Positions 4,904 through 47,216 of a DNA stretch of 64,000 nucleotides are shown here, piece by piece. The number at the start of each line of letters is the position of its first letter. The first letter of the stretch is position 1. Origin of the DNA: Escherichia coli (GTDB lineage Bacteria; Pseudomonadota; Gammaproteobacteria; Enterobacterales; Enterobacteriaceae); NCBI RefSeq assembly GCF_036507355.1, contig NZ_AP027877.1. One strand, written 5' to 3'. Below the pieces are notes generated by a model that worked only from the letters and a program-made list of their open reading frames with translations, did not search any database and was not told where the DNA came from. A program made the translations under genes and the position numbers.

Positions 4904-6378
4904 CCCAGCATCGAGCCGGTTGCAATTAAATTACGGTGTAAGTCGAAGACGTGGCTAAGATCGTGGTGAATATGTCCGCCAGGCGCATTTTCCAGATAGC
5001 GATGCAGATAATCCCGATACATAGGATGTGCACAATTATCAATGATCGTGCGGGCGCGTTGAAGCGGGGAAAGACCGCGCAGATCGGCGATCCCTTGTTC
5101 GGTGATGATCACTTTGACGCTGTGTTCGCTGTGATCAACATGGCTGCACATTGGCACGACGGTTGAGATCTTGCCTTCTTTAGCAATCGATGGGGCCATA
5201 AAGATCGACAGATACGCGTTGCGTTCAAAATCACCGCTGCCGCCGATGCCGTTCATCAGATCGACCCCGGCTACGTGCGTTGAGTTGGCATGCCCGTAAA
5301 TATCAAACTCCAGGCCGACGTTCAGAGCGATGACGCCCAGACGACGGATGATTTCCGGGTTATTGGAAATCTCCTGCGGACGCAACACAATGCGGCTGGC
5401 AAAGTAATCCATATTGTCGTAAATCTTGCGCAGGGAATCGGCCGAGATTGTCAGGCTGGAGGCGCTGGCCCCGCTGATTTTGCCGGTTTCCAGTAAATGC
5501 ACCACCGATTCCTGTAGCACTTCCGAATACATCATAAACGGAGGAATTTCCGGGTTTTCCCCCAGACGCGCCATTACCGCATTATTGATATTGCCCACGC
5601 CACTTTGCAGCGGCAGAAATTCCGGCGGAATACGCCCATGCGCCATTTCCTGCAATAAGAACGTGACCACGTTATCGGCAATCTGCTGGCACATGGGATT
5701 TTGCTTATCCAGCATATTACCGGCGTCAGGCAAGTTGGTTTCCACGACGGCGACAATCTTTTTCGGATCGATTTGCACATAGCGGGTACCGACGCGATCC
5801 ATTGCATGGAAGATCGACACGCTATTGCGCCGTGGTGGCGCGCCAGGAATCACAATATCTGCCAGTTCTGCAACGCGCGGATCGTGATAGTGATTGAGTT
5901 CAATGATCACTTTCTTCGCTCGCAGCAGCCAGGTCGGCGCATTACCGATCCCGCTGGTTAACCAGACTCGACCATCTGGTGCCAGTGCCGATGCTTCAAT
6001 GACGGCAACATCAATGTCGCCGAAGAAACCGTAATTGACCATTTGCGCCACTTCGCTCAAATGCAGGTCAACGAAACTCACCGCGCCCTGATTGATCTTT
6101 TTACGTAAACCGGACGATGTTTGATATGGCGCACGCCAGGAAACAGCATCAGCGTCAGAAAGTACATCGTCAGCGGCGGCGCTGATTGACGCACCCGTCA
6201 GCAGGCGAATTTGATACGGCTTTTTAGCCTCATGCTGTTCGTTAGCTCTGCGGGCAATCGCGGTGGGTAGGGCTTTCGGTGAACCCGCTGGGGTAAAGCC
6301 GCTAAATGCCACCATGTCGTTATGCTGGATAATTTCTGCCGCTTCATCGGCGGTCATCCTTGTCCACTGAGTTTCCAT
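4900..6378 (-). CDS. scpC: Propionyl-CoA:succinate CoA transferase
   Basis: 492 aa, matches K-12 ScpC (YgfH). Confidence 0.95.
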   Translation of the reverse strand: METQWTRMTADEAAEIIQHNDMVAFSGFTPAGSPKALPTAIARRANEQHEAKKPYQIRLLTGASISAAADDVLSDADAVSWRAPYQTSSGLRKKINQGAVSFVDLHLSEVAQMVNYGFFGDIDVAVIEASALAPDGRVWLTSGIGNAPTWLLRAKKVIIELNHYHDPRVAELADIVIPGAPPRRNSVSIFHAMDRVGTRYVQIDPKKIVAVVETNLPDAGNMLDKQNPMCQQIADNVVTFLLQEMAHGRIPPEFLPLQSGVGNINNAVMARLGENPEIPPFMMYSEVLQESVVHLLETGKISGASASSLTISADSLRKIYDNMDYFASRIVLRPQEISNNPEIIRRLGVIALNVGLEFDIYGHANSTHVAGVDLMNGIGGSGDFERNAYLSIFMAPSIAKEGKISTVVPMCSHVDHSEHSVKVIITEQGIADLRGLSPLQRARTIIDNCAHPMYRDYLHRYLENAPGGHIHHDLSHVFDLHRNLIATGSMLG

Positions 6379-36550: not shown

Positions 36551-37054
36551 TTATTGATAGTGTTTTATGTTCAGATAATGCCCGATGACTTTGTCATGCA
36601 GCTCCACCGATTTTGAGAACGACAGCGACTTCCGTCCCAGCCGTGCCAGGTGCTGCCTCAGATTCAGGTTATGCCGCTCAATTCGCTGCGTATATCGCTT
36701 GCTGATTACGTGCAGCTTTCCCTTCAGGCGGGATTCATACAGCGGCCAGCCATCCGTCATCCATATCACCACGTCAAAGGGTGACAGCAGGCTCATAAGA
36801 CGCCCCAGCGTCGCCATCGTGCGTTCACCGAATACGTGCGCAACAACCGTCTTCCGGAGCCTGTCATACGCGTAAAACAGCCAGCGCTGGCGCGATTTAG
36901 CCCCGACATAGCCCCACTGTTCGTCCATTTCCGCGCAGACGATGACGTCACTGCCCGGCTGTATGCGCGAGGTTACCGACTGCGGCCTGAGTTTTTTAAG
37001 TGACGTAAAATCGTGTTGAGGCCAACGCCCATAATGCGGGCTGTTGCCCGGCAT
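36551..37054 (-). CDS. insB: IS1 InsB' frame (transposase InsAB' via -1 frameshift at the A6 run 36992-36997)
   Basis: 167-aa frame overlapping the insA 3' end. The motif ttaaaaaac lies on the IS1 coding strand. Confidence 0.9.
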
Positions 37055-37248
37055 CCAACGCCATTCATGGCCATATCAATGATTTTCTGGTGCGTACCGG
37101 GTTGAGAAGCGGTGTAAGTGAACTGCAGTTGCCATGTTTTACGGCAGTGAGAGCAGAGATAGCGCTGATGTCCGGCGGTGCTTTTGCCGTTACGCACCAC
37201 CCCGTCAGTAGCTGAACAGGAGGGACAGCTGATAGAAACAGAAGCCAC
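36973..37248 (-). CDS. insA: IS1 InsA
   Basis: 91 aa, [43 protein letters not shown]... Confidence 0.95.
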
Positions 37249-38338: not shown

Positions 38339-38412
38339 GCGGGCGTAGTTCAATGGTAGAACGAGAGCTTCCCAAGCTCTATACGAGGGTTCGATTCCCT
38401 TCGCCCGCTCCA
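38339..38412 (+). tRNA. glyU: tRNA-Gly (anticodon CCC)
   Basis: gcgggcgtagttcaatggtagaacgagagcttCCCaagctctatacgagggttcgattcccttcgcccgctcca. 74 nt, cloverleaf-compatible, CCA encoded. Confidence 0.95.
38390..38412 (+). repeat. attL core (glyU 3' end)
   Basis: 23 bp identical to 42585-42607. Confidence 0.85.
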
Positions 38413-38546
38413 TGACCTTTCTTAAAGTACTCCAACCTACTGAATCCTAAGGGATACGGCTTTAAGCCTTCCGCTAGTTTTACTCACTGTAACCAACACT
38501 GTAACTAAATTTGTTGAAATAGTGAGCAGACTTAAGATCTCAGTAC

Positions 38547-40178
38547 ATGCTCAACTCAAAAACCTATCTTTATCAGCGCAATGGCGTCTTTTATATCCGC
38601 CTCAGGATGAAGTCCACAGATCGCCTGACCGTTTCACATCCTTCCCATAGCCGTTATAAAATAGCGTCAGTATCACTACGGACTAAGGATAGACGTACAG
38701 CTATGGCTTACTCACGGCAAATCAAGGCAGCACTTAGGGCAATCCATGCAGACAGACCCAACGCCTCCTATGAGGAAATGAGGGAACACCTGAGGGACAT
38801 CGCAGAGTGGGAGTTGTCTACAGGTCGTTCAGACCTCTTCGAGCCAGATATGAGAGATCTATACCGTGACCAGTATGGGGAAGTGGGAGAGAATCTTGTC
38901 CATGCTCTGGCAAGCGAGCCACTGACTATTGACCAGCATCGCTATATTAATGAGGCTCTTAATGTACTCAAGGCCTGCATGAAGCGCATTGAAGCGGGAG
39001 ATAGCCAGCCACTTATAGATTATATAGATGGATTTGATGCTGCTGCTGGGGCTAATGGCCAAGCCTCTGCAACTCTATCTGTTAGTGCTCCCCAAAAAAC
39101 AAGCATTACTGAAGGCAAACACTGCGTAACCGTTGCTTCTCTCTTTGAGCAGTACGAGCAGGAAAACGCCCAGAACTGGAAGCCAGCAACATTACGAGAA
39201 AACAAAGCTTCTCATGCTGCGTTAATCGAAGTTTTTGATTATCTGGGCCTCAATGCTGACGCCAATGTGTTAGCTCGTGCGGATATGCTTAGGGTTCGGG
39301 ATATCCTCCAGCAATTGCCGAAGAATCGTAAGCAGCGTTTCAAAGATGTTCCGTTGGTTGACCTGCTAGGTCGTGAGGATAAAACCGATTGTCTGGATAT
39401 TGTTACCATCAATAATAAATATCTCATTAAGATGGCGGCTGTTTTCAAGTGGGCCGTGCGTAATGACCTGATTAAAAAGAATATGACAGAAGGGCTAGAG
39501 CTTAAGGTTCCCCAGCGTAAAGCCTCTGAGGCGCGTAATGCTTTCTCTACGGAGCAGGTAGGACAACTACTGGCTGCCGCCCAAGTTTACTCACAGAGAC
39601 CTTCTGGTAAGCCGTATCATTATTATGTTACCGCCTTGGCTGCTATCACTGGGGCGAGACTCAATGAAATAGCCCAACTACAGGTCAAAGACGTCAGGAC
39701 CACTGAGGCGGGAACCGTTTATATTCATATCAATGAAGACGATAGTAGTCTACCCGGTAAGAGCATCAAGAACGCTCATAGTGACCGCTGTGTGCCTCTG
39801 GTCGATGGGGCCTATGGTTTTATATTGGCTGACTTTATGAGGTTGGTTGAGACCCGTAGAGGCGCTGATGGTGATGACGCTATGGTGTTCGATGGTCTTC
39901 GCCTCATGAAGAACGGTTACGGTGAGCAGGTGAGTAAATGGTTTAATCGGACGTTGTTGCCTAAAGTCCTCGCAGACCGTAGCGGCTTAGCGTTTCACTC
40001 GTTTAGACATACAGTTGCGACCCAGTTAAAACAACATGGGGTCGAGTTGGCGTATGCACAGGCGATCATGGGGCATAGTTCAGGGTCTATTACTTACGAC
40101 CGTTATGCTAAAGAGGTTGAGGTTGATAGACTGGTCAATGTGATGGCTGATGTTTATAAGGAGGTTGTGGCCCCTTAA
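38547..40178 (+). CDS. Tyrosine recombinase / integrase (large, 543 aa)
   Basis: The C-terminal catalytic signature is visible: ..GARLNEIAQL.. (R), HSFRHTVATQL (HxxR), GHSSGSITYDRY (H..Y). The N-terminus YLYQRNGVFYIRLR is typical of integrase N-terminal arm-binding domains. Confidence 0.85.
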   Translation: MLNSKTYLYQRNGVFYIRLRMKSTDRLTVSHPSHSRYKIASVSLRTKDRRTAMAYSRQIKAALRAIHADRPNASYEEMREHLRDIAEWELSTGRSDLFEPDMRDLYRDQYGEVGENLVHALASEPLTIDQHRYINEALNVLKACMKRIEAGDSQPLIDYIDGFDAAAGANGQASATLSVSAPQKTSITEGKHCVTVASLFEQYEQENAQNWKPATLRENKASHAALIEVFDYLGLNADANVLARADMLRVRDILQQLPKNRKQRFKDVPLVDLLGREDKTDCLDIVTINNKYLIKMAAVFKWAVRNDLIKKNMTEGLELKVPQRKASEARNAFSTEQVGQLLAAAQVYSQRPSGKPYHYYVTALAAITGARLNEIAQLQVKDVRTTEAGTVYIHINEDDSSLPGKSIKNAHSDRCVPLVDGAYGFILADFMRLVETRRGADGDDAMVFDGLRLMKNGYGEQVSKWFNRTLLPKVLADRSGLAFHSFRHTVATQLKQHGVELAYAQAIMGHSSGSITYDRYAKEVEVDRLVNVMADVYKEVVAP

Positions 40179-40180
40179 GG

Positions 40181-40219
40181 ATGACCATAGGCGATGACCA
40201 TAGGCGATGACCATAGGCG
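40181..40219 (+). repeat. Tandem 13-bp repeat atgaccataggcg x3 (plus a partial fourth)
   Basis: Three perfect head-to-tail copies begin 3 nt after the integrase stop. Each contains the reverse complement of the CTATGGTC motif that recurs at 40239-40291 and 40821-40848. Confidence 0.9.
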
Positions 40220-40330
40220 ATGACACTTGCTACTATTCCTATGGTCCCCTTTGTGGTCCTATGTGGTCCTGTGTGACCCTTTGTGTGGTCATGTTTTGAC
40301 TCATAGTTTTCACTACTTGTCAAGCATATT

Positions 40331-40353
40331 TAATACGACTCACTATAGGGAGA
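40331..40353 (+). promoter_or_regulatory. Phage T7 RNA polymerase class III promoter consensus, 23/23 match
   Basis: TAATACGACTCACTATAGGGAGA is read directly, with an AT-rich -22..-18 region (atatt). Predicted +1 is the G at 40348. It points toward the cargo genes at 41158 and 41845. The sequence match is certain. Its function in vivo is inference. Confidence 0.85.
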
Positions 40354-40585
40354 AGGGACACAAAAAGTTTTCTCTCTCTGTCTCTCTCTATGATGACACT
40401 TGCTACTACTTCAGGTAGCTTTAACTCTAACCGTAACTTATCGCATCCTTTCAGGGGCGGGATGACCAATTACAGACACCAAGCGTTCTACTTAAAATGA
40501 ATGCTTCCTGTGTGCTCTGGGTCAGTCGATAAGTGAATAGCCTTAGACATCATATTAATTATGGTCTCTAACCCCTACAGGGGCT

Positions 40586-40729
40586 TAACTTTAAGTATTA
40601 ACTTATAGTCTACTTAAAGACACAATTAAAGATTAACTTAAAGTATTAAATTATAGATTAATTAAAGACCAATTAAAGAGTAACTTTAAGTATTAACTTA
40701 TAGTCTACTTAAAGACACAATTAAAGATT
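40586..40729 (+). repeat. Three tandem ~47-bp AT-rich iteron-like repeats
   Basis: The 49-bp string taactttaagtattaacttatagtctacttaaagacacaattaaagatt is identical at 40586-40634 and 40681-40729. A degenerate copy (40635-40680) lies between them. All are rich in TTAAAG submotifs. Confidence 0.85.
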
Positions 40730-40922
40730 GACTCTAAGGGAATACCTTAAGAGGTGATGATATTCATAATAATCAATCACCAAACCTATAGGTCTCCTCA
40801 AGGCATTACCCAGAAGCTAACTGTATGGCCCTGTATGGTCCTGTACGCCATTCTTTAGGATGCCATGTAGTTTCGTATGGCCTGATGCCTAGCGTGGCTC
40901 AGAGACCCTCCCAGTAGTAAAT

Positions 40923-40945
40923 CAATACGACTTACTAATAGGAGA
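40923..40945 (+). promoter_or_regulatory. Degenerate T7-like promoter
   Basis: caatacgacttactaataggaga matches the T7 consensus at 18/23 ungapped, or better if a 1-nt insertion near -3 is allowed. It lies 213 nt upstream of the 41158 ORF. Confidence 0.35.
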
Positions 40946-41157
40946 CACACTCCGAACCACTCACCACGTGTCTCTCAAAGTTCCACCTCTCGCGCTTCAC
41001 CATACAGTAGCTCCGCACAGCTACGACACAATCATTCATTCAATCTCAAAGTCATTCTGTTTGCATCCTGTTGTCCTGCTGGTCTCCCTTCGCTTGGGGA
41101 CTTTGAGTGGGCCAGTAGGGGGCGGTTTAGTGTGCATATTTAAAAGGTAACCAAGCA

Positions 41158-41721
41158 ATGAACAATAAACATAAACATGCAGGTCATATTATCACTATTG
41201 AAGGCCACAGCTTTAAGTCTAATGAGTCTGGCATGTGGAATCTTACAGAAATATGGAAAATCCTCGGATTACCTAACAATAAGCTACCCTCTCAGTGGCG
41301 CGGCAAGGTAACAAAGAGGCTCACCGACATGCAAAAAATGCACGTCGAGAAGATTGGTATTGAAAGCATAACCTACGCAGACAAACAGGCTACCCTCAAG
41401 TATGCAGGATGGGTCTCTGAAGATTTCGAGGACATGGTCTATGCAGCCTTTGAGGCTATCCTTGAGATGCCTGAAGTTGCCACGGTCGTTGCTAATAAGA
41501 TGGTCGAACTTGGCTATCACGCTGAAGCTGAGCTATTGGAACGTCATAAGGACGACTATAGAGAAGCTATGCAGACCCTTAAAAAGATTGGTAAACGTGT
41601 TGACGGCAGGAAGCCTGAGCGCATCTACAAGGCCGTACTTAACGGTAATCTGACGAAATTTCAAGGGTTATCCATGATTTCTCGCAGCAGTGTCTGGTAC
41701 GCCCGAACAGTGAATCTATGA
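41158..41721 (+). CDS. KilA-N-like DNA-binding domain protein (tentative)
   Basis: 187 aa. The N-terminal pattern is ..ITIEGHSFKSNESGMWNLTEIWKILGL..P.QW.. followed by ..TYADKQATLKYAGWVSEDFEDMV.. This resembles the KilA-N/Bro-type fold as I remember it. The C-terminal half is helical and basic. Confidence 0.5.
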   Translation: MNNKHKHAGHIITIEGHSFKSNESGMWNLTEIWKILGLPNNKLPSQWRGKVTKRLTDMQKMHVEKIGIESITYADKQATLKYAGWVSEDFEDMVYAAFEAILEMPEVATVVANKMVELGYHAEAELLERHKDDYREAMQTLKKIGKRVDGRKPERIYKAVLNGNLTKFQGLSMISRSSVWYARTVNL

Positions 41722-41844
41722 TGGCTATCGATCACGATAGATGCCAGCGATCAATTTCAGGTTACCGATCGAAACAAACGATCAGCACGATGGTTGCAAT
41801 CGGATATCATATTGACACTTGTCTGACATCCTGAAGGTATCAAT

Positions 41845-42318
41845 ATGTTTGGGCTTTTTAAGAAAAAGGCAAAAGCGGAAAGGTGTTATGATGTAACACG
41901 CATTCAATACGAGCTGGTTGTAATGTCATCTAAGCTGATAAAAAAACAGACCGATATGTTCAAAGTAATAAAAGGGGAGCGAGAGGAGGCTTTAGGAGAC
42001 CCTTTATTATCAGCAGGGTATATAACGCCATGGGTCATTGGATATTGCACTGGTCTCCTGGATGCAGTGACTCAGACGGAGGCTAACAGGATGGCATTTA
42101 CATCAGAAATGCTTGGGCTTCTTTTTGCTGCAGTTTTCGGTGATGATAAGTCTCTTGAGGCCATGGGAACTTATATAGCCTGTAACGAAGCCTCCTCACC
42201 AGACCATGGATTTCATGTTACGTATGAGCTTTATATGTCTGGTCTAGCGAAAGCGTTTAATGAGGTATGTGAGGATAAACCTGCGATAGGACTTCTGAAC
42301 TATTTAATGCAGGATTGA
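41845..42318 (+). CDS. Hypothetical protein (157 aa), no recognisable family
   Basis: Intact ORF on the same strand as the T7 promoter and the 41158 ORF. It is preceded by a GATC-rich spacer. Confidence 0.55.
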   Translation: MFGLFKKKAKAERCYDVTRIQYELVVMSSKLIKKQTDMFKVIKGEREEALGDPLLSAGYITPWVIGYCTGLLDAVTQTEANRMAFTSEMLGLLFAAVFGDDKSLEAMGTYIACNEASSPDHGFHVTYELYMSGLAKAFNEVCEDKPAIGLLNYLMQD

Positions 42319-42584
42319 AAATTTCCCACAAAAATCTCAGTGCCTATCTAACAGTAATAACCCTGCAACATTCCCCCGTATACCTCCAGAAGTTATCCAG
42401 AAGCCGAAGTAGGTATCCTGTCATGTATTTGAATCATCAAAGTTGTTCGTTCTATTCCTCTTTAGGGAATATTACAGCCCTACAGCCTTGACCAGAGATC
42501 ACTTGATGTGTAACCATAACTGTAACCAAAAGGATTCATCATCCTTTAAGAAACAATTGGTTAGTGAGTGATTGTCTTCGATAC

Positions 42585-42607
42585 TTCGATTCCCTTCGCC
42601 CGCTCCA
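42585..42607 (+). repeat. attR of islet 1, and remnant att junction preceding island 2
   Basis: ttcgattcccttcgcccgctcca, identical to the last 23 nt of glyU. Confidence 0.85.
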
Positions 42608-42771
42608 AACTCAAGTCTCCTGAAGTCTACCAAACTCAATTTTTCCTTGATAAATCAGCAGTTATAGCTTTCTATTAGTCTATTGAACTCAATTGTACTC
42701 CCCCAGGGTCAAGCTCAATGTGGGGGTATGGATGGGGGTATAATTGTACCCCCTGCTGAGAGGTACCCCCA

Positions 42772-43998
42772 ATGAAGCTGACTGCTCGTCAGGTTGAAAC
42801 TGCGAAACCCAAAGAGAAGCCCTACAAACTGGCCGATGGTGGTGGGCTTTACCTGCTGGTTAATCCCAACGGTAAAAGATACTGGCGTCTCAAATACCGT
42901 TCGTTAGGTAAAGAGAAGCTGCTCGCTATTGGCGTTTATCCCGATGTTTCTTTAGCTGAGGCCCGAAGTAAGCGTGAGGATGCTAAAAGAACATTAGCGG
43001 CTGGCAACGATCCCTCTCTTGAACGAAAAATTGAGAAACTTAGTCGTCAACAAGACGCTGAAAACTCGTTTGAGGCTATCACACGGGAGTGGTATCAGCG
43101 TCGCTATGACCGCTGGTCTGTCTCCTACCGCGAAGAAATGCTGAGAACCTTTGAGAAAGATGTATTTCCTTATATCGGTCACAGGCCAATCAAAGATATC
43201 AAGCCGATGGAGTTGCTTGCAGTTCTTTCAAAGATAGAAGCACGAGGGGCAACAGAGAAAGTCCGCAAGGTTCGTCAGCGTTGTGGAGAGGTCTGGAAGT
43301 ATGCCGTTGTGACTGGGAGGGCCGAGTACAATCCAGCACCTGATCTAGCCAGCGCCGTGAGTCCTCATGAGAAAGAGCACTATGCTTTTTTAACCCAGGA
43401 TGAATTGCCTGAGTTTCTTCGGACTCTGAACGCCTATGCCGGTAGTGTGCTTGTTAAGATTGCGATGCAATTGCTCATTTTAACAGGAGTAAGGCCAGGG
43501 GAGTTGAGGCAAGCGGAGTGGCAGGAGTTTGATTTTGAGAAAAAGGTTTGGAATGTACCAGCGGAACGTATGAAAATGCGCCGCCCTCATCTTGTTCCAT
43601 TATCAAGCCAGGCAATTGACCTGCTTAATCAACTTAAACCCATAACGGGAGCAGGAGCGTTATTATTCCCAGGACGTAATAATCCTAAGAAACCGATGAG
43701 CGATATGGCATTGACTGTGTTGGTCAGGCGTATCGGCTATGCCGGGCGCGTTACAGGGCATGGATTCCGCCACACGATGAGTACCATTTTGCATGAGCAG
43801 GGATTCAACTCGGCCTGGATTGAGTTACAGCTGGCTCACGTCGATAAGAACTCAATTCGTGGGACGTATAACCATGCTCAATATTTGGAAGGTCGGCGGG
43901 AGATGATGCAGTGGTATGGAGATTTCATCGGTCAAGCAGGCAAATCCGGATCATCGCTAGCTTATGCAGCTATTAGCTTGACTGCTGAATTAGAGTGA
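42772..43998 (+). CDS. P4-family tyrosine integrase
   Basis: 408 aa. The N-terminus MKLTARQVETAKPKEKPYKLADGGGLYLLVNPNGKRYWRLKYR is typical of the DUF4102 arm-binding domain. Catalytic residues: GVRPGELRQ (R), HGFRHTMST (HxxR), IRGTYNHAQY (Y). Confidence 0.9.
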   Translation: MKLTARQVETAKPKEKPYKLADGGGLYLLVNPNGKRYWRLKYRSLGKEKLLAIGVYPDVSLAEARSKREDAKRTLAAGNDPSLERKIEKLSRQQDAENSFEAITREWYQRRYDRWSVSYREEMLRTFEKDVFPYIGHRPIKDIKPMELLAVLSKIEARGATEKVRKVRQRCGEVWKYAVVTGRAEYNPAPDLASAVSPHEKEHYAFLTQDELPEFLRTLNAYAGSVLVKIAMQLLILTGVRPGELRQAEWQEFDFEKKVWNVPAERMKMRRPHLVPLSSQAIDLLNQLKPITGAGALLFPGRNNPKKPMSDMALTVLVRRIGYAGRVTGHGFRHTMSTILHEQGFNSAWIELQLAHVDKNSIRGTYNHAQYLEGRREMMQWYGDFIGQAGKSGSSLAYAAISLTAELE

Positions 43999-44008
43999 GA
44001 AGGGGCAA

Positions 44009-44039
44009 GTTGAGCCTCTTCGCTGAGAAGAGGCTCAAC
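44009..44039 (+). terminator. Hairpin after the integrase
   Basis: gttgagcctcttc-gctga-gaagaggctcaac, a 13-bp stem. A T7 run lies 10 nt downstream. Confidence 0.5.
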
Positions 44040-44195
44040 GTGAACCTATTTTTTTGGGAGTTAATACTTTTTGCAATTTTTTTTTTCGTGCCGTTGGATG
44101 TAAAGATCTGTGGGGGTTAGGGAAGAAAATCATGCTATGTTAGTCTTTGAGGAGTGAGTCAAAATGTTATAACTTTTTCAAAGAGGCGTTACATC

Positions 44196-45131
44196 GTGAA
44201 AGTCGTTTTTAATGTTAATGGTAAAAAAGTTCCGCTCAAATCTCTGCAATATATAAGTAAAGCAAATCAACTCGAAGTTATGCGGAATTGGTTTTTTGAG
44301 AATTTTGAAGATCCCGCGAACTCTTGCCCGTATGAATCCCGTGAAGGCGGGTATGCTTACATTTATGGGGGCCCATACGAAGCAAGTGAAGAGTTGCAAG
44401 CGATGTTTGAAGGACACGTGAAATTTGATTATATCCAAGAATTAGTCAATGAATTACAAGAACAGTGCTATGAATGGTCTGGTAATTCAAATAATATTAA
44501 TGATTGGTACGATGAAGACTTGTATGATGCTGTTACATCTTCTGAACATCCTTTTTCTAAGTTCGTTGAAAGCATTGATGGAATAAAATTGCTGTCTAAA
44601 GGCGAATTTAAAGATAAACAAAAAGATCATCTGCTTAGCATCCTATATATTAATGTCATTACAGCCCTGGAAACACTTTATGTTGAGTTATTTATTAACT
44701 CTATAGATAAAAACGACTCATATCTTGCTGACTTTATAGAAAAAGGTAAGACGGAATTTAAGGTAAATAAAGGAATATTGGCTTTGCCATTCAAAGGAGA
44801 AACTATTGAAAACATGAGGGCGCAATTAATTAAGGTAATTAAAGAGCATTTGATTAGTGCAAGTTGGCATAGTACAAACAAAGTTGTAGGACGTTATAAA
44901 GCTACATTTGATATAAAAGTACATAAAGAGTGGCCAATAGATGTGATCGAAATAGCAACTCAAAAGCGTAATCATTTAGTCCATCGTGGCGGGAAAGATA
45001 AAGAAGGTAATTCGGTAGTGATTACTGAACAGGATTTAGAAATGTTGCTGGATCACGCACAATCTCTTGGAGAAAAATTGTTTGATAGCCTTGAGGTGGC
45101 ATTACAGAAAAAAGATGAGAATGAATTTTGA
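44196..45131 (+). CDS. Candidate HEPN-domain (Rx4H) protein; the track ORF begins at 44154
   Basis: GTG at 44196 is preceded by aagagg at good spacing. The C-terminal region contains ..ATQKRNHLVHRGGKD.. (R-N-x-x-x-H), the hallmark HEPN RNase motif. The N-terminal domain is unassigned. Confidence 0.4.
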   Translation: MKVVFNVNGKKVPLKSLQYISKANQLEVMRNWFFENFEDPANSCPYESREGGYAYIYGGPYEASEELQAMFEGHVKFDYIQELVNELQEQCYEWSGNSNNINDWYDEDLYDAVTSSEHPFSKFVESIDGIKLLSKGEFKDKQKDHLLSILYINVITALETLYVELFINSIDKNDSYLADFIEKGKTEFKVNKGILALPFKGETIENMRAQLIKVIKEHLISASWHSTNKVVGRYKATFDIKVHKEWPIDVIEIATQKRNHLVHRGGKDKEGNSVVITEQDLEMLLDHAQSLGEKLFDSLEVALQKKDENEF

Positions 45132-45206
45132 GTCTCGGGGTAGGTTGATAGTGCTACCGATAACGAGCAAGCAAATGATACTCGGCAGGCAGTGCCTGCC
45201 GGAGGA

Positions 45207-46910
45207 TTACTTTTTACTTCCAAATTGAATGCCGAGAAGTTTATTCTCTGCTTTATCGCCACGTAGAGTAAGAACAATTTTTGATTTCAGTTCTAACATT
45301 TCGATTTCAGATAAAGTTGTTTCCATAGCATTAAAGTTTTCAGTGTTTAAAGATGCTATATATTGCTTTCCGCTTCGTTTTAATGACTGATTGACAAATG
45401 AGAACCATCTTGCGCGAACACCTGGATCTATATCAGCAAAAAGACGGTTATCATGCCATAGCATATCCATGGCATGGTTTTCACCACATGTAAATACTAA
45501 CCAGTCAAAGCATAATATCCTAGCATCATTGATCCCATCCGAATCATCACCCTCGATTTGGATGCTTAGATCATAACGAATTTTGTTGTCACCAGTATTA
45601 ACATCCAAAACTATTCCTGCTGGTACCCTTGGGTACATTATTTCTGCGAGCTCAGCAAAAATTTTATCGTATTCTGAAAGAGGATTTGTAGAAGCATAGT
45701 TTACCGCTAATCTGTCTTGTTCAACTTTTCGTTCTCTTAGATTTTGAGCTTTCTGTTGAAGGTTAATAGAAAAATTTAAATAATCATGTAACCTTTCTTT
45801 TTCTTCTTTAAATTCAGCTAGTTGTCTAGCTATGACTGCGTATTCATCAAATGCTTTCTTGCCTTGCAGGGATTCCAAATATGAATCACGTAATGCTGAA
45901 ATATCCTTAATGTCAATTTTAAGAGATTCAATTTCTAACAAAAGTTTTACTTTATCATTTTCAAGTCTTTTCTTTCTGTTAAAAGATAATGATTTGTGAA
46001 AATTTTCAACTGACTCAAAATGGGCCAATGTTTCTGGCTTGAAAATCTCTTGTAAGCCATTGTACAGTTCAAGAAGCTCTTCTCTTGAAATGTCAGGGTG
46101 TTCTAATAAAGTTTTTTCTATATTATTTACTTTAAATTCAGCTATATTTTTGTTTTTTTCAACTTCTCGTAATTTTATAGTTAAACTGTTTGTTTCATTC
46201 TCAATAGCTCTGTATTGCTCGTGAACTTGAAATGCATTCAGTTCATCCTGCAGTCTTGGGATCTCTCTTTCTAGCCACTCATAGCGTACTTTAGGTTGAG
46301 AGCCTGCTCTAAACATGTCTTTTAGAATATCATCGTCTTGCCAATTTTTTAGCGATTGACTTACTTTATCCAGCTCTTGCTTATTATTTCTTTTAGATAA
46401 TATTAAATTATGATCTATACCGAGAAGAAATGCGGTACGAAGCAATGCTTCAAAGTCTTGCTCCTTTTTTGTCCTAGTTGGACTGATGCAGTCATCTCTG
46501 GTATATCGCGAAAAACGCTTAAATAAAGATCTGAATGATAAATACGGAATGTTATTCTCAAGATTAAATATTCCTATTTTATCTAATAAATCTTTAAATG
46601 CTTTTAAAGATATTGTTTTGTCATTTAATAATAATTTTTTTCCATTGCCCGTTCTAGATATTAAGTACTCAACTCCATTATGAGAAAAAAGTAAAGAGAA
46701 CCACCAATCTGGAACTGCTGAAGTTAATTTTTTATCAGCATTAGCTCCTAAACAATGTTGAATGAGACCGAGAATAAGTGTCTTACCGACTCCGTTACTA
46801 CTGCCTTCTTTTTCTTTAGAGCTATCACCAATGATCAACGTTAGTCCTGTATCATTGAAATGCACTGGATGAAAAGTTGGCTGATCGCAAGTTAAGCGAA
46901 TTAACTTCAT
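45207..46910 (-). CDS. SMC/ABC-type ATPase with coiled-coil insert (LmuB / ABC-3C ATPase-like, DUF2326-like)
   Basis: 567 aa. Walker A is SSNGVGKT. There is a long K/E-rich coiled-coil middle, and the C-terminal block is ..DDSDGINDARILCFDWL... Its start codon abuts the stop of the upstream small ORF (taaATG). Confidence 0.6.
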   Translation of the reverse strand: MKLIRLTCDQPTFHPVHFNDTGLTLIIGDSSKEKEGSSNGVGKTLILGLIQHCLGANADKKLTSAVPDWWFSLLFSHNGVEYLISRTGNGKKLLLNDKTISLKAFKDLLDKIGIFNLENNIPYLSFRSLFKRFSRYTRDDCISPTRTKKEQDFEALLRTAFLLGIDHNLILSKRNNKQELDKVSQSLKNWQDDDILKDMFRAGSQPKVRYEWLEREIPRLQDELNAFQVHEQYRAIENETNSLTIKLREVEKNKNIAEFKVNNIEKTLLEHPDISREELLELYNGLQEIFKPETLAHFESVENFHKSLSFNRKKRLENDKVKLLLEIESLKIDIKDISALRDSYLESLQGKKAFDEYAVIARQLAEFKEEKERLHDYLNFSINLQQKAQNLRERKVEQDRLAVNYASTNPLSEYDKIFAELAEIMYPRVPAGIVLDVNTGDNKIRYDLSIQIEGDDSDGINDARILCFDWLVFTCGENHAMDMLWHDNRLFADIDPGVRARWFSFVNQSLKRSGKQYIASLNTENFNAMETTLSEIEMLELKSKIVLTLRGDKAENKLLGIQFGSKK

Positions 46911-47216
46911 TTAACTTTCCTTATTTTTTAATTTGTCATAATTGCAACAGATTGGCATTATTCTGTTTTCATTATCTAGCGTTATTTGTTTGATGCAAAA
47001 AAGAATGTCTACGGCAAGTATAAATTGTGTAAAAGAGGGCGTGATTATCGTTGATTTATTTTTCCGCTCTATTTTTGTCCATAGTTCTTCTATGGATACC
47101 GGTCCATCAATTAACGAACGGATGTATCCTGCAATCGCAATTAGGGAGTTACTAAACCTAACATGCTTATGTGGCAGAAGCATTGCTTGGATGTTCATAA
47201 GCATCACATGTCTCAA
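46911..47216 (-). CDS. Small middle-component-like protein (LmuC / ABC-3C MC-like); possibly the 3' part of a frameshifted ~148-codon gene
   Basis: 101-aa ORF with a TTG start, translationally coupled to the ATPase. A 62-aa ORF in another frame (47167..47355) fills the gap back to the upstream gene. Confidence 0.4.
   Translation of the reverse strand: MRHVMLMNIQAMLLPHKHVRFSNSLIAIAGYIRSLIDGPVSIEELWTKIERKNKSTIITPSFTQFILAVDILFCIKQITLDNENRIMPICCNYDKLKNKES

Follow-up and report, generated by a model that had tools for sequence, protein, structure and literature searches.

A small Escherichia coli tRNA-Gly island with T7-type promoters as a candidate minimal satellite of T7-group phages

A 64,000-nucleotide stretch of Escherichia coli contig NZ_AP027877.1 (RefSeq assembly GCF_036507355.1; hereafter the window) contains a genomic island of 4,195 bp, at 38413-42607, inserted at a gene for tRNA-Gly(CCC). 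The tRNA gene, located by ARAGORN at 38339..38412 on the plus strand, supplies the left attachment (att) core with its 3′ end (attL, 38390-38412), and an exact direct copy of these 23 nucleotides (nt) forms the right core (attR, 42585..42607, plus strand). Between them lie three genes on the plus strand: a tyrosine integrase (int) of 543 amino acids (38547..40178; PF00589 2.2e-18, PHROG 1 2.6e-42) and the two genes with which this analysis is concerned, A (41158..41721, 187 amino acids) and B (41845..42318, 157 amino acids), each beginning with ATG. An earlier reading of the stretch, made without database searches (the original prediction), had held A and B to be the only intact genes besides the integrase, and near-identical copies of the island in RefSeq agree with that inventory, being annotated as an integrase plus two hypothetical proteins and nothing more. 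Near-identical islands occur in NCTC10973, AW1.7, D72 and SBF22. Two CACTGTAAC(C/T)AA repeats (38485..38508, plus strand; repeat family D5), which we infer to be candidate integrase arm-type sites, stand ahead of the integrase gene, with a third copy at 42518-42529. The att repeats and arm-type repeats are intact in the window island, and metagenome contigs carry the identical attR followed by five different downstream flanks.

Relatives of the island were collected as 21 loci from other genera with an A family probe, of which the A query retrieved 20, together with further loci from E. coli, Yersinia and metagenomes. Pairwise Nei-Gojobori comparisons with homologues from E. coli, Yersinia, Pectobacterium, Morganella and metagenomes gave ratios of non-synonymous to synonymous divergence (dN/dS) of 0.08-0.19 for A and 0.07-0.18 for B; both are real genes under purifying selection, and the two plus-strand reading frames had been called correctly. 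Synonymous divergence (dS) between A and its copy in Yersinia enterocolitica (L027, 5313-5876) is 0.195, whereas that of the adjoining B is 0.88, a contrast that points to recent exchange of the A segment between genera and to a mosaic island.

The product of A has an N-terminal KilA-N domain at approximately residues 10-105, followed by a conserved helical C-terminal part. Its match to the Pfam KilA-N family (PF04383; E 9.5e-4, 19.4 bits) falls under the gathering score of 23.8, but the same profile is matched by 15 of 27 members of the A family (best 2.4e-6), seven homologues have a precomputed PF04383 match, and the window protein itself matches PHROG 129 at 7.8e-10. The N-terminal domain of the predicted model also has the KilA-N/APSES fold, while a Foldseek search of the model against the PDB returned nothing below E 0.1 and was uninformative. 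By these profiles A is a divergent KilA-N protein with predicted DNA-binding capacity, as the KilA-N-like pattern recognised in the original prediction had implied. The A family comprises 94 clusters from Enterobacterales and Pseudomonas. Its phage relatives share the N-terminal domain only, at approximately 30% identity and none above about 32%, and the C-terminal part has no relatives outside the island family, within which the tail occurs in at least three variants. Residues 50-118 gave a partial match to the PADLOC model PD-T4-2_B (1.3e-4), which was set aside as uninformative because it is partial and weak and the system in question consists of DUF262 and HEPN components. Neither A nor B has a convincing match to a PADLOC model of a known defence system.

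Gene B was described from the outset as an orphan, and so it remains: no match was found in Pfam, PHROG, NCBIfam or PADLOC. Its predicted structure is all-helical at low confidence (pLDDT 49), and a profile search recovered 15 relatives among 1.84 billion representative proteins, none of them annotated. These relatives share the motif ITPWV[IV]GY..G.LD, which reads ITPWVIGY..G.LD in the window protein. An alignment of eight B loci revealed a conserved element upstream of the gene (41736..41786, plus strand; GATAG...CGATCAAT-N11-CGATCGAAACAAACGATC) containing three GATC sites and a CGATCG palindrome. This element precedes every B homologue, whatever gene lies upstream, suggesting that B is a travelling cassette with its own control element.

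The DNA between the integrase gene and A contains two promoters of the type read by the single-subunit RNA polymerases of T7-group phages. The first, P1 (TAATACGACTCACTATAGGGAGA; 40331..40353, plus strand), is a perfect copy of the 23-nt T7 class III consensus with its +1 at 40348; it has 0 mismatches, where shuffled sequence gives an expectation of 0, and is the same sequence as T7 phi6.5, phi9, phi10, phi13, phi17 and phiOR. The second, P2 (CAATACGACTTACTAATAGGAGA; 40923..40945, plus strand), is a degenerate T7-type promoter with 5 mismatches, 592 nt after P1, and the two-promoter layout recurs with similar spacing in Pectobacterium and Citrobacter islands. Across 28 loci (354 kb), counting matches with at most 5 mismatches to known single-subunit-polymerase promoters, 29 lay on the strand that encodes A and 0 on its complement, compared with 0.2 in shuffles. 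Promoter type also tracks the host, being T7-type in E. coli and Yersinia and gh-1-type (TAAAAACCCTCACTA) in Pseudomonas. Helper-type promoters are present, strand-specific and host-matched.

The promoter region varies between islands. In E. coli AR_0014 (NZ_CP024859.1; L048, 8386-8941), a common E. coli variant of the island, the interval between the defence gene RAZR and the A slot holds a tandem promoter array of two specificities, in which one T7 and one K11 promoter are perfect and two more are K11-like (one K11-type with 1 mismatch), which suggests that this island could respond to two different helper polymerases. On a metagenome contig (L031, approximately position 1443), a promoter with another specificity region, ATTAACCCATCACTATAGGGAGA, was observed before an A homologue that is 89% identical, suggesting that promoters have been swapped to suit different helpers while A stayed unchanged. 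In the window, a perfect 17-nt direct repeat (GATGACACTTGCTACTA, at 40219-40235 and 40392-40408) flanks a 173-bp unit with TGGTC repeats and P1. The promoter unit is present as a tandem duplicate in another island (L023), and the P1 unit appears duplication-prone on that account.

No host promoter was found to account for transcription of either gene. A sigma-70 scan detected none ahead of A or B, and fewer sites than in shuffles, in keeping with the earlier remark that a strong host promoter was lacking; no intrinsic terminator was found ahead of A or B either. The co-orientation of both genes with T7 promoters, also remarked upon at that stage, holds for the perfect P1 and the 5-mismatch P2 alike, all on the plus strand, and the proposal that A and B are the output of phage-polymerase transcription is upheld as far as sequence can show.

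Immediately ahead of A lies a 5′ leader (41040..41157, plus strand) of which approximately 110 nt are conserved, with a predicted RNA structure at about 41061-41137. The 3′ arm of the structure adjoins the ribosome-binding site, and a long-range helix shows covariation. In the RNAalifold consensus, both-sided changes occur at 7 of 13 pairs, and 89.9% of cells are paired, compared with 81% in shuffles (0 of 500 reach 89.9%) and 22-56% in slid controls. The leader matches no Rfam family. It is kept from E. coli to Pseudomonas, including islands in which Rha or Ant-like genes replace A, and may serve to process transcripts made by the phage polymerase or to control their translation.

Conserved noncoding DNA and repeats occupy much of the remaining interval. 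Directly after the integrase gene, at 40180..40282 on the plus strand, three GATGACCATAGGC repeats are followed by CCTATGGTC / TGTGGTCC repeats (repeat families D2 and D3; further copy at 40821-40844). The 13-bp GATGACCATAGGC copies, at 40180-40224, stand where relatives have RAZR / PD-T7-4, and the repeats of 40180-40282 resemble the CCTATGG repeats that lie close to the left of the terminal repeat of T7 and of T3-like phages (right ends of T7 and LL2). Repeats in island DNA also include GACCATAGG and TATGGTC. T7 primase pentamers, in which the repeats of 40180-40282 abound, are enriched in 40179-41157, with 9 on the plus and 15 on the minus strand against approximately 2.7 expected, an excess due in part to the short repeats. 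Just after P1, a noncoding block (40429..40541, plus strand) is near-invariant between the E. coli and Yersinia islands in an eight-island alignment and matches no Rfam family; an Rfam search of 40100-42700 gave chance-level matches only.

Further downstream, an AT-rich block (40586..40738, plus strand; 24% guanine plus cytosine (GC)) contains three repeats of approximately 48 nt (repeat family D1). When it was scanned against both strands of the whole T7 genome, with promoter positions taken from the T7 record, the best matches were at approximately 5951-6017, directly after phi1.1A/B, and in windows at about nt 200-700 spanning phiOL, with scores of 50 and 49 against 21.5 +/- 3.5 (maximum 38) for shuffles. 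We take these two T7 regions to be the primary and a secondary replication origin of the phage. T7 origins consist of a T7 promoter followed by an AT-rich stretch.

A further phage-like element begins at the stop codon of B. The sequence at 42315..42387 (plus strand; TCTAACAGT...) resembles a T7-group concatemer junction, in which approximately 33 nt of unique right end lead into the beginning of the terminal repeat. Positions 42315-42355 are identical to T7 39745-39785 at 34 of 41 positions, with a score of 47 compared with 18.2 +/- 2.4 (maximum 30) for shuffles. The T7 terminal repeat starts at 39778, so that the match covers the last 33 nt of the unique right end and the first bases of the repeat; the matched stretch is the concatemer junction, at which cutting produces the mature left end. 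The match to the T3-like phage LL2 extends over 68 nt, and all matching phage records (117 of 117) are T7-group genomes of about 38-40 kb; in those with annotated genome ends, the match falls within the terminal repeat. A junction copy is present at the 3′ end, on the plus strand, in all Enterobacterales islands examined, while nine Pseudomonas islands instead carry a gh-1 junction (scores 43-67) made up of 35 nt left of the gh-1 repeat and up to 50 nt of the repeat. Two independent helper elements, promoter and junction, thus switch together with the local phage type, which is difficult to account for other than by selection for being read and processed by those phages. At the DNA level, the region 40179-42606 had no match among 50,697 phage records at E <= 1e-5; its phage-like elements are of a length or divergence that this threshold misses, and surfaced only in targeted local alignments.

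At least 28 loci from two orders share this compact layout, in the order int, int-proximal slot, phage promoters, leader, A slot, 3′ slot, junction copy and attR. Hosts include E. coli, Yersinia, Citrobacter, Pectobacterium, Pantoea and many Pseudomonas; the Enterobacterales islands are inserted at tRNA-Gly, whereas those of Pseudomonas use other sites. Among 5426 complete E. coli genomes, the integrase type is present in 384 (approximately 7%), A in 83 and B in 55, and the integrase type of the AR_0014 island, about 82% identical to that of the window, accounts for roughly 285 of the 384 integrase-bearing genomes. The int-proximal slot often holds RAZR / PD-T7-4 (for example L024, 4761-5390, PADLOC model match 2e-100), and otherwise an uncharacterised 201-residue protein or HEPN-like or Bro-N proteins. 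In the window this slot is empty, with no RAZR. The known defence gene of the island family is RAZR / PD-T7-4, which is distinct from A and B.

The A slot always lies behind phage-type promoters and the conserved leader, and its occupant is without exception a predicted DNA-binding protein from the 'Bro network' (KilA-N / Rha / Ant). Most loci have KilA-N there, L049 has Rha, L048 a weakly Rha-like protein and L025 an Ant-like protein. A C-terminal effector domain common to all A-slot proteins was considered and rejected, as only the Rha and Ant-like proteins share one and A lacks it. The 3′ slot is more variable, holding B in Enterobacterales and a DUF6971 protein plus an uncharacterised protein of about 330 residues in Pseudomonas, Citrobacter, Pectobacterium and some E. 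coli (L008 8147-9609; L048 10325-11957; L001 8291-9985; L002 7870-9425). Two E. coli islands lack B altogether, L023 with int and A only and L024 with int, RAZR and A, indicating that A is the usual occupant of a core slot and B is cargo. The label of islet cargo, originally given to both genes, is thus appropriate for B, which is variable and replaced or absent in relatives, but not for A. DUF6971 proteins have approximately 130-165 residues and a charged helical tail, and their partners have about 330-420 residues; a Big_2 Ig-like domain, typical of virion surface proteins, lies at the end of two of nine of these larger proteins. Searches with the 330-residue protein found no match in PDB sequences, Pfam, PHROGs or phage genomes (tblastn), and no hhalign similarity to T7 gp10. 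The pair may represent satellite-encoded scaffold and capsid (virion) proteins.

By these matches the cis elements are all present, co-oriented and far beyond chance expectation, and together with the gene content they suggest that A and B are helper-polymerase-driven genes in a minimal satellite of T7-group phages, resembling a 'T7 phagemid', with A acting as a helper-induced switch and B as an accessory. We put the probability of this reading at about 0.55. The island has the integrase, intact attachment sites and site-specific insertion of a phage satellite, carries a putative helper packaging signal, and lacks a full virion and replication gene set of its own, with only int, A and B in 4,195 bp. 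The original prediction had left open whether the islet was a satellite or a defence module. It had missed the decisive cis elements, namely the junction copy after B and the AT-rich T7-origin-like block, and this new evidence favours the satellite option; its interpretation is in this sense partly supported. The broader proposition, that a widespread and previously unrecognised family of satellites exploits T7-group phages by means of copied promoters, origin and junction, an A-slot switch and a 3′ slot holding B or a possible virion pair, has in our judgement slightly better than even odds.

Under the satellite reading, infection would allow the helper polymerase to fire P1 and P2, so that A and B, the sole protein-coding genes of this transcription unit, are made, and transcription from P1/P2 would prime replication by the helper replisome at the AT-rich block. 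The integrase, which lies upstream of the phage promoters and hence outside the phage-polymerase transcription unit while the island is integrated, would be transcribed by the host and would excise the element. Excised DNA would then be multiplied into concatemers, of which nine copies would amount to 37.8 kb, within the 85-103% packaging range of T7 (PMC9860248, which also describes the roles of pacB and pacC), and the helper terminase would cut and package at the junction copy. Upon delivery to another cell, the gene nearest behind the entering end would be that of the integrase. A would be a helper-induced DNA-binding switch, and the simplest guess at its task is that it steers or permits activation and integrase-mediated excision. 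This guess derives from two considerations: in L023 and L024 A is the sole gene downstream of the promoters, L023 having only int and A, and excision directionality is the one trans function that a helper would not obviously supply. B would be an accessory protein made in the same expression burst. For A, direct interference with the helper is the main alternative.

The proposed element can be compared with several known systems. One parallel is with engineered T7 phagemids: T7 replicates plasmids that carry its origin, pac site and terminal repeat, packages them in multimeric form and transduces them (PMC13236587, citing Chung & Hinkle 1990). Like the island, these phagemids combine a promoter-type origin with a pac/junction region that includes the start of the terminal repeat, and they are packaged as multimers of approximately one genome length, as is proposed for the island. 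Unlike the island, they consist of exact T7 fragments on a plasmid origin, whereas the island is natural and chromosomal and has a junction that is identical at 34 of 41 positions, an integrase and two polymerase-driven genes. The closest concept is that of the PICMI of Vibrionaceae (PMC10803314), likewise very small (approximately 6 kb) integrative satellites of virulent phages without capsid-remodelling genes, in which concatemers of about eight copies fill a full-size helper capsid and defence cargo is possible; packaging has been seen for PICMI and is inferred for the present island. However, the PICMI core consists of int, alpA and primase next to fis, while the window island has no AlpA or primase domain and lies at tRNA-Gly, so that it is not a PICMI. 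Neither helper-promoter nor pac mimicry has been reported for PICMI, whose authors did not find a pac/cos site, whereas the window island copies promoter, origin-like sequence and junction. Similarly, int, A and B contain none of the hallmark alpA-repressor, pri-rep, terS/ppi/rpp, capsid-module or P4 alpha/sid/psu/delta domains of PICI, cfPICI and P4-like satellites.

The PLE of Vibrio cholerae (PMC7145576, PMC8096241, PMC6002521) are a functional analogue. As is proposed for the window island, they lie silent in the chromosome until a virulent helper, in their case ICP1, arrives, encode a small DNA-binding protein (CapR) that acts during infection, depend on the helper for replication and virion proteins, and protect the host population. 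They differ in size (approximately 18 kb, with many genes), in activation and excision driven by the helper protein PexA instead of by helper-polymerase promoters, in the use of a large serine recombinase and in having their own replication initiator. Gene A resembles KilA-N / 'Bro network' proteins (PF04383; PMC10111431) in the profile and fold of its N-terminal domain and in the exchange of KilA-N, Rha and Ant-like modules within its slot. It differs from them in its score below the gathering threshold and in a C-terminal part without relatives outside the island family. We know of no description of a KilA-N family gene expressed from a promoter for a virulent helper's single-subunit polymerase. 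RAZR, which in many relatives lies between the integrase and the phage promoters, places the RAZR / PD-T7-4 locus in this same island family, and PMC9519451 (2022) states that PD-T7-4 'often overlaps an integrase gene'. A term search of PMC9519451 and PMC13017515 (2026) found no KilA-N or island promoter in either and no satellite in the latter. Literature searches for a T7-group satellite or a T7-promoter island returned nothing relevant, and a 2024 satellite review has no T7-group satellite among those included.

Several observations weigh against the satellite reading. Expression, excision, replication and packaging are predicted from sequence. The attP junction pattern had no match in IMG/VR or JGI metagenomes, data sets that are not lysates of infected carriers, and a control pattern search yielded 12 metagenome contigs, all in the integrated form; the A profile likewise found no homologue in IMG/VR. 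Of the T7 terminal repeat, the left boundary alone has a clear copy, as no significant match to the right boundary was found; a candidate for the right boundary near P1, alike by eye, was rejected as not significant. To our knowledge no KilA-N protein acts as a recombination directionality or excision factor. Unrelated DNA-binding domains also fill the A slot while the integrase genes keep 82-90% DNA identity, which is hard to reconcile with a factor obliged to fit the att arms. Since T7 phagemids need no plasmid-encoded protein, A may moreover be dispensable for mobilisation. Finally, RAZR / PD-T7-4 is an abortive-infection RNase triggered by the portal proteins of T7 and T3 (PMC13017515); carried by many relatives, it would kill the infections on which a T7 satellite depends. 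The conflict would be eased if the actual helpers evade RAZR, or if the island functions chiefly as a defence in the manner of PLE.

An alternative, corresponding to the defence option of the original prediction, is a pure defence 'promoter trap' without transfer. The phage promoters would then be infection sensors through which T7 polymerase expresses a toxic or anti-phage A and/or B, and the origin-like and junction-like sequences would serve as decoys that tie up helper replisome and terminase. KilA is named after a host-killing protein of phage P1, phage promoters stand before A and B, other slot occupants are HEPN-like, and no circular form was detected in IMG/VR or the JGI metagenomes, all of which would suit such a trap. 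The island family is also the native home of the validated anti-T7 RAZR / PD-T7-4 (PMC9519451; PMC13017515). A decoy, however, needs no integrase, att sites or arm repeats, yet all of these are conserved, and it need not track both the promoter and the junction type of the local phage; PADLOC gave no convincing match, with only the partial PD-T4-2_B hit for A and nothing for B. We therefore consider a pure trap unlikely, and note that defence and satellite behaviour are not exclusive, as PLE illustrate.

Another possibility retains the satellite but assigns A and B to hijacking or interference, with A binding helper DNA or protein and biasing expression or packaging towards the island, in analogy to CapR or to packaging redirection by PICI. 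Excision would then be carried out by the integrase alone or with a helper factor, as PexA for PLE. The conservation of the A DNA-binding domain from E. coli to Pseudomonas alongside a tail in at least three variants would fit varied helper partners, CapR offers the precedent of a satellite DNA-binding protein acting on its helper (PMC8096241), and Bro-network proteins are classically anti-repressor-like protein binders (PHROG names; PMC10111431). Set against this, no target is identifiable, A stays conserved while helper promoter sequences differ, and unrelated DNA-binding domains replace A in otherwise similar islands, which makes this account of A rather doubtful and somewhat less credible to us than the trap. 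Very improbable, by comparison, is descent from an integrated T7-like temperate phage that has decayed, leaving the promoters, origin and junction as remnants and A and B as surviving accessory genes without a joint function. It is true that all three cis elements are phage-type and that T7-like phages with integrases exist. LUZ100, in addition, shows temperate features (PMC10134795). Yet no T7-group gene is left, DNA likeness to phages is confined to the short cis elements, and among phage proteins A matches nothing but distant KilA-N proteins; the recurrence of one architecture across the 28 or more loci of two orders, purifying selection on both genes and promoters that are perfect rather than decaying also speak against a remnant.

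The surroundings of the island indicate a busy integration site. A second island (42608-47216) follows in tandem at the duplicated att site, where GC content falls to 31-38%. This neighbour lies beyond attR, separate from the 4,195-bp island, and has genes for a P4-type integrase (42772-43998) and for a protein whose N-terminal domain is of HEPN/RES type (44154-45131). Its minus strand encodes a DUF2326 protein (45207-46910), for which the candidate defence model PDC-M68B gives a match of 7.7e-73. On the other side, an IS1 element (36551-37248, with InsA and InsB reading frames on the minus strand) lies between lysS and a lipoprotein gene resembling actS (ygeR), close to the tRNA-Gly integration hotspot on its upstream side.

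As a proposed phage satellite, the element would stand apart from those already described by its helper group and by promoter mimicry as its route of activation. If the satellite reading is correct, satellite biology would extend to the T7 group (Studiervirinae), whose namesake is a mainstay of biotechnology and has probably been studied more closely than any other virulent phage. Other satellites are activated via protein-protein derepression, whereas copied helper promoters would here let the helper's private RNA polymerase transcribe its parasite, a new activation principle. The gene set would be minimal, with one E. coli island consisting of an integrase and one DNA-binding protein only. 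The family would also provide a genomic setting for RAZR / PD-T7-4 and pose the puzzle of an island that needs T7-type infections yet aborts them. In practical terms, carrier strains could contaminate T7-type phage preparations with transducing particles, and the natural pac and origin variants may be usable as orthogonal phagemid parts.

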